DNA from: Catajapyx aquilonaris
Taxonomy: Eukaryota
DNA: 20,000 nt
Assembly (NCBI GenBank): GCA_000934665.2
Contig: JYFJ02001517.1
Coordinates: 57,807-77,806 of the forward strand
Direction of reading: 5' to 3'
Position numbers and translations under genes: made by a program. This document shows positions 11,301-11,716 of this stretch, one piece after another; positions within the stretch are counted from its first letter, which is position 1, and the number at the start of each line of letters is the position of its first letter. The notes beneath the pieces were generated by a model, which made no database searches, was not told the DNA's origin, and saw nothing but the letters and a program-made list of their open reading frames with translations.

Positions 11301-11716
11301 TGGAGTGATAAGCAAGCATTTCTCTGCGGTACTGTTACGAATCTCCAGTCATATAGAGATTTCTGTAAGTATGGTGCCACAAGGGGAACATTGGCCAGCC
11401 ACGTAGGAGTTCCTCCTGCTTCAATAAGAAGGACTTTAAACTTGGAATTTTCGGAAAGACGACTTGCCAGAACACAGCCTGATGAACCACCACCAACTGA
11501 AACATATGTGAAATACGTATTTAAATATAGAGATTTTCTTGTCAGACAAAAGTATACAAACCAAAGATACTCCCCAATTATAAAATCAAATGTAATCGCG
11601 GTTAAGTCTTCTTCAATATAATGAAACGTATAATCAAATAAATAATTCAGGTGGTATATGACGTTGACGAGCAGGGGAAACGCCAGGATTGCCAATGGAC
11701 CCCAGCATGACCCCAT
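8384..11716 (-). CDS. GMC oxidoreductase paralog B, about 620 aa, C-terminal KDEL
   Basis: Exons: 11716-11575, 11496-11294, 11212-11026, 10947-10813, 10521-10400, 10334-10164, 10080-9927, 9855-9695, 9620-9443, 8856-8634, 8570-8384 (1863 nt). Motifs: [78 protein letters not shown]; ends ...MKYSKDEL*. First coding intron has a GG donor. Confidence 0.93.

Follow-up and report, generated by a model that had tools for sequence, protein, structure and literature searches.

Human U2-type introns with a GG donor number only 32 among 222,263 (Parada 2014, quoted in PMC5714493). In a study of six non-canonical donors, GG ranks second-weakest, and in human reporters it was considerably activated only when both SRSF7 and TIA1 elements were present (PMC6280755). 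Two ATM variants, c.1898+2T>G and c.6347+2T>G, are described as leaky, with 13% and 24% full-length transcript in minigenes, and of five +2T>G variants newly examined in the same report, four produced no full-length transcript (PMC12805630). For Drosophila melanogaster, PMC4528330 gives FlyBase counts of zero GG-AG introns among approximately 60,000, with 12 GA-AG introns annotated. The copepod Eurytemora affinis carries GA or GG donors in 10-12% of its introns, and these introns are newly gained (Robertson 2017, PMC5714493); the 36 donors listed in File S1 of that paper all follow exon AG, have A at +3 in all or nearly all cases, and in no case read AGTAT at +4 to +8. A literature search with little coverage of subscription journals found no arthropod GMC gene described as having a GG donor.

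Here we describe such a donor in Catajapyx aquilonaris, within a window of 20,000 nucleotides (assembly GCA_000934665.2, contig JYFJ02001517.1, positions 57,807 to 77,806); all gene features of the window given below lie on its minus strand. Gene models built with a spliced aligner written for this analysis place three GMC oxidoreductase paralogs in the window, with aligned extents of 77-3226 (A), 8384-11716 (B) and 14549-18152 (C). The coding span of gene B (8384-11716) comprises 11 coding exons, and when its first intron is cut at the GG it yields 620 codons plus a stop, with no internal stop and no frameshift, so that the original prediction was right to call the remainder of the gene intact. 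Of its ten introns, the other nine all begin with GT in the aligner's calls. Pfam GMC_oxred_N and GMC_oxred_C each match on single exons, and together with GxGxxG and the C-terminal His (YHPAG) and Asn (GNTHA) motifs they identify the product as a GMC oxidoreductase. Long trinucleotide microsatellites also occur in the window, at 3375-3470 (upstream of the start-codon exon of paralog A) and at about 19690-19760 (near the contig end).

The exon that carries the gene B start codon (ATG at 11716) occupies 11575-11731 and stops at ...ATT G (11575), its last codons encoding FDFII with one G left over. It is probably an internal exon, because an acceptor-like TTTCAG ending at 11732 precedes it, and the gene would then have an intron in its 5' UTR. 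A three-codon upstream frame, ATG AAT TAA (11726-11718), ends two bases before the gene B ATG in both of the haplotypes described below. Intron 1, in phase 1, spans 11497-11574 (78 nt, or 79 nt in the second haplotype), with GGGAGTAT as its first letters and TTTCAG as its last, an acceptor that is intact, as had been claimed. Coding exon 2 (11294-11496) opens with TT GGT GGT GGT, which completes a Val and runs on into GGGSSG, the GxGxxG FAD-binding motif; the conserved strand before this motif has its role in the Rossmann fold.

The GG donor is real in the genome. Each of three DNA runs yields one unbroken contig over 8300-11888, with no difference from the window and at a depth of 24-35, the runs being from the same sample, possibly the source of the assembly, and hence not independent. 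A sequencing error at 11573, which the original prediction had allowed for, is excluded as far as these contigs show: at that base all three keep GG, and no GT donor is seen. A private allele, also suggested at the time, is contradicted by a second assembly contig (G000:C12503, 1.9 kb) that holds another version of the 5' end of gene B and likewise reads GG. This contig differs from the window at 35 of 1667 aligned bases (approximately 2%) and by ten indel events, with differences sitting about 30 nt from the GG donor on both sides. It is most likely a second haplotype, because five of its letters just upstream appear in the DNA runs as a minor bubble at 20-38% of depth; that it is a low-coverage copy instead is the less probable alternative. 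Both the donor of the second haplotype and its 79-nt intron, with an extra base at 11503-11504, are read from this one contig. No second haplotype came to light in a search that covered the remainder of gene B together with three other donors discussed below, the damaged ones of two paralogs and that of a NAALADase gene. Protein searches with the read-through frame recovered neither a close or transcript-derived copy of B nor an orthologue from a near relative.

The position of intron 1 is common to seven paralogs, 38-53% identical to B, and the donor is GT in 6/6 paralogs with the phase-1 intron of gene B (A, C and four elsewhere in the genome). In keeping with what was first noticed, A (intron 3076-3210, donor G|GTAAGA at 3210) and C (intron 17515-18130, donor G|GTAAGT at 18130) read G|GTAAG at the very position where B has GG. 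Because all six paralogs that share the intron have GT, the GG is, on this comparison, the derived state of an old intron whose ancestral donor was GT.

We consider it reasonably probable, at roughly 0.6, that this old intron is still removed by weak GG-AG splicing on the ordinary U2-type spliceosome; the degrees of confidence expressed here are our own judgement and not a computed posterior. Of the three readings offered in the original prediction, a spliced GG donor is the best supported, since it restores the family strand in both haplotypes and leaves an intact frame, while use of the junction is inferred. From -3 to +8 (11567-11577) the donor reads TTG|GGGAGTAT, with G at +2; its weak spots are the exon side, TTG, and the G at +3. 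AGTAT at +4 to +8 is fully complementary to U1, pairing with its first five bases, a match found in 7 of the 349 GT donors of the survey described below and in none of the six paralogous GT donors. The predicted U1 duplex of -6.9 kcal/mol is about the median of GT donors, and the donor score exceeds 34% of GT donors overall and 80% on intronic positions alone. The surroundings of the dinucleotide thus keep a U2-like consensus (G|G-GAGTAT), and the AG acceptor has its pyrimidine tract (TTTCAG). Immediately downstream, from +9 to +30 (11545-11566), lies a U-rich tract (13/22 T, 59%) that may serve as a TIA-1-type intronic enhancer. An equally T-rich +9 to +30 occurs in 4/261 GT introns and in 3/70 AT-matched introns, an excess that weakens in a wider window (55/261 introns match at +9 to +40), and the AGTAT match and the T-rich tract coincide in 0/261 introns; both features were scored after the GG site had been seen.

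Whether another junction could serve gene B as well was assessed by pairing every GT, GC, GG and GA donor with every AG acceptor in both haplotypes. In each haplotype, G|GG is the one donor that gives back FDFIIV-GxGxxG. When the six positions before GxGxxG are scored against the motifs of 139 full-length homologues, the G|GG splice (FDFIIV) reaches 20 bits, as against 5 for retention of the intron and -12 for the cryptic GT considered next. That the GT at +5/+6 (11569-11570) shifts the frame relative to the TTTCAG acceptor, as originally stated, was verified, and this site outscores only 1/349 GT donors. The sole GT in frame with the normal acceptor, in both haplotypes, lies 27 nt downstream (11546-11547); its use would add nine residues and leave an intron of 51-52 nt, a length with some precedent in that one 51-nt intron exists in this genome, but every one of the 349 GT donors outscores the site, its predicted pairing with U1 is close to nil (+0.7 and -1.7 kcal/mol), and the strand that it gives is WFVYFF, all of which makes the reading highly improbable. 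Acceptors at upstream AGs were rejected, as they are usable in the 78-nt haplotype alone and would require either very weak donors or introns of 33-36 nt. U12-type introns have an RTATCCTT donor and a TCCTTAAC-like branch site; here a similar GTATCTTT stands at +5 but does not join in frame to the shared acceptor, the intron shows no branch sequence of this sort, and a U12-type intron was likewise rejected. RNA editing of the GG donor was dismissed as well, no G-to-U editing being known.

The original prediction also raised in-frame retention, with an intron-coded strand taking the place of FDFIIV, and its premise survives in part: the 78-nt intron, as it stands in the haplotype of the window, is a multiple of three without an in-frame stop. 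It may be supposed that this haplotype, the commoner one in the sample (the alternative letters just upstream make up 20-38% of depth), retains and translates the intron, with FTYVSV as the strand before GxGxxG, and that the 79-nt haplotype, known from one assembly contig, is null. When aligned to a solved alcohol oxidase, FTYVSV does fall in register with FDYVIV of that enzyme. The second haplotype, however, frameshifts on read-through and meets a stop near codon 95, so that the open frame is not kept in all alleles, as it would be in a functional exonised intron. An intron that is in frame and stop-free arises by chance in 18/212 short GT-AG introns of this genome. Moreover, retention puts Thr at a position that is Asp in 131/139 full-length homologues and Thr in 1/139, and it puts Ser, in place of Ile or Val, at -2 before GxGxxG, where Ser occurs in 0/139. 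The likeness to a strand can be put down to chance in AT-rich acceptor regions, because the ordinary GT intron of a paralog reads through as YYYYIV and scores 10 bits against the 5 of FTYVSV; the last two residues of the read-through strand are in any case forced by the acceptor. Donor and acceptor signals are free of decay, which also speaks against retention. Single-sequence structure prediction of the retained N-terminal piece, made without an alignment, gave a pLDDT of 44 and was given no weight. Because the second haplotype frameshifts and the first places Ser where no homologue of the 139 does, retention is, on these comparisons, unlikely as a general mechanism, and we regard the two-haplotype form set out above as improbable. 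A related scenario, exonisation in progress, in which the donor is dead, the 78-nt haplotype is rescued by an intron-coded first strand of the FAD fold and the 79-nt haplotype segregates as a null, strikes us as decidedly improbable.

The next most likely alternative is that the donor was for the most part inactivated by the +2 T>G change. Gene B would then be a hypomorph or a young pseudogene, and most of its transcripts would keep intron 1, be spliced at the out-of-frame +5 GT or lack the start-codon exon. In the published tests GG performs very poorly as a donor, and the family is large, with 44 matches to exon 2. Two other GMC paralogs with open frames have damaged donors: one (G000:C1039, L068:2780 area) reads AAG|ATAAAA against the AAG|GTAAAA of its close sister on C144, its donor being lost and its frame otherwise open, and in another (G000:C1358, L056:4440-4460) approximately 4 additional bases precede the donor of intron 9 and put it out of frame with the conserved acceptor. 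Both of these genes look otherwise intact, and broken donors are accordingly not rare in the GMC family here. Gene B also keeps 100/109 near-invariant residues, which is among the lower values of 32 models, but paralog A, which has normal donors, keeps a similar share (102/111). Splicing farther downstream in gene B is indicated by contigs of run X5, a different sample of unrecorded kind that we take to be RNA: these contigs skip intron 8 (9621-9694) and intron 10 (8571-8633) exactly and without mismatch, yet at a depth of about 2 and over the 3' part of gene B only. Four of the five listed runs, none of them recorded as RNA, were compared with the gene, and no spliced contig among them reaches intron 1, a gap that favours neither reading.

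Against gene death stands the clean frame, for 1860 coding bases have neither stop nor frameshift although the GG is common to two diverged haplotypes and predates their split. By a rough indel calculation that uses the rate between the haplotypes, a gene dead since the split should have gathered about 2-5 frameshifts; 0 are observed (P 0.005-0.17). The clean frame argues against gene death without separating splicing from retention. The ratio pN/pS between haplotypes is 0.32, from 3+3 changes only and not significant (P 0.16). Gene B has no close duplicate, its nearest paralog being 53% identical and its terminal branch 0.58 in a quick tree, and it is an old lineage; furthermore, a dead site would not be expected to lie in a U1-complementary context that is as rare as 2%. 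On balance we hold that a hypomorph or pseudogene is unlikely, though by no means negligible.

How far the GG donor is a peculiarity of gene B was judged from a survey of 50 GMC, ABCB and ABCC genes, whose models contain 396 introns (23/36 ABC stretches were used, and two partial GMC models were dropped). GMC and ABC transporter homologues, roughly 45-60% identical, came from insects, crustaceans, chelicerates and myriapods. At 357 positions shared with a paralog there are 349 GT-AG introns, 4 GC-AG (in one case because the aligner skirted a donor that had been lost), 3 with GT and a doubtful acceptor call, and 1 GG-AG, that of gene B; the other 356 include no GG or GA donor (95% upper bound 0.84%), in a survey whose aligner favoured B's GG by a very small margin and could therefore miss donors near gene ends. 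Two GG/GA calls in genes on C1696 proved on inspection to be in-frame coding loops, while the remaining odd calls (one GA within an ABCC linker that aligned poorly, one CT, and the acceptors other than AG) were put down to probable alignment noise. In the two adjoining GMC genes on that contig (G000:C1696, L123:4759-4806 and 8205-8249) the frame includes an acidic loop, about 15 residues long, that most of the family lacks. Elsewhere, an ABCC1-like gene (G000:C454, L119:1554-5279) has an uninterrupted frame of 1242 codons where its paralogs have 14-25 modelled introns, and is possibly a retrocopy.

The snRNAs of this genome look ordinary. A standard U1 5' end is present in 10/13 U1 matches, the other three having no recognisable one, and ACAGAGA in 5/6 of the U6 matches read; a variant U1 or U6 behind the use of GG was accordingly rejected. 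The ten intact U1 copies (L033-L042) fall into at least two groups by upstream sequence. Outside the survey, a NAALADase gene contains a predicted 58-nt GA-AG intron (G000:C3329:18014-18071; L126:7214-7271), CAG|GAAAGTAT, where both paralogs have GT, and the only in-frame GT there would leave an intron of 43 nt. The GA donor also has AGTAT at +4 to +8, so that the match is found in 2/2 of the GG and GA donors against 7/349 GT donors (Fisher P 0.0006, in a tiny sample and noticed post hoc). Within the window, 2 of the 28 introns of the three genes have GC donors, namely intron 2 of paralog A (2872, CAG|GCATGT) and intron 8 of paralog C (15481, AAT|GCAAGTAT, also a full U1 match at +4 to +8). 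The idea of a Eurytemora-like spliceosome that is tolerant at +2, with GG and GA donors common, could draw on the NAALADase GA donor and on these two GC donors, but with 0/356 other shared-position introns GG or GA and with U1 and U6 standard to the extent given above, it is scarcely credible. The comparison with Eurytemora that accompanied the first observation thus fails at the scale of the genome, and the donors of the two also have different sequence signatures.

Weak splicing of the GG-AG intron, the reading we prefer, would run as follows. The ancestral GT donor of intron 1 became GG through a +2 T to G change, and the intron would still be removed at G|GG, to an extent that keeps the gene functional, though probably with lower efficiency than from GT. 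U1 would bind through -1, +1 and the unbroken stretch from +3 to +8, which would make up for the lost pair at +2; the U-rich tract just downstream could aid recruitment of U1 in the manner of TIA-1-type proteins, and the GTs in the neighbourhood would be poor competitors. Side products are likely, among them retention and use of the +5 GT. What has already been observed fits: a GG that is derived by the paralog comparison, its presence in two haplotypes, an intact frame, standard U1 and U6, and exact joining across introns 8 and 10. If used, the site would be a natural, population-level +2T>G donor that survives in an old, required intron. The occurrence of GG and GA donors in the same genome suggests a testable rule, that a +2 change is tolerated where +4 to +8 reads AGTAT, with a bearing both on the judging of +2 variants and on gene models, which would otherwise retain intron 1 or break the gene. 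None of this points to a new splicing machine.

Set beside known systems, the gene itself resembles glucose dehydrogenase [FAD, quinone]-like GMC enzymes in its Pfam GMC_oxred_N and GMC_oxred_C domains, its GxGxxG and its C-terminal His/Asn motifs, and differs in that its N-terminal query matches even its best database relatives at no more than about 60% identity. The GA-AG introns of Drosophila melanogaster are similarly isolated one-base departures from GT-AG in an ordinary arthropod genome, and often have no alternative splice nearby; they are GA only and have RNA-seq junction support, whereas gene B has GG and its use is inferred. The human GG donors and the ATM variants are alike in that an existing GT is changed to G at +2 with a standard U1 and the rest of the site near consensus. 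The ATM cases, however, are rare variants examined in minigenes, while the gene B donor is natural, stands in two haplotypes, and would have to be used at that very base for the canonical protein to be made. With Eurytemora affinis, gene B has in common an arthropod setting, GG-AG ends, an intron whose removal is constitutively required and an unchanged U1 5' end. It departs from Eurytemora in frequency (1/357 here against 10-12% of introns), in the age of the intron (ancestral in gene B, new in Eurytemora) and in signature, with exon TTG, G at +3 and a match on the intron side in place of exon AG and A at +3; none of the Eurytemora-type features (about 10% genome-wide, exon AG with +3 A, a lineage-specific new position) is seen in gene B. 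If the GG is used, compensation would lie on the intron side, in U1 pairing out to +8 and in the U-rich tract, as opposed to the exon side in Eurytemora, and by these likenesses the donor most likely works in the manner of the known isolated GG donors, not of the Eurytemora type.
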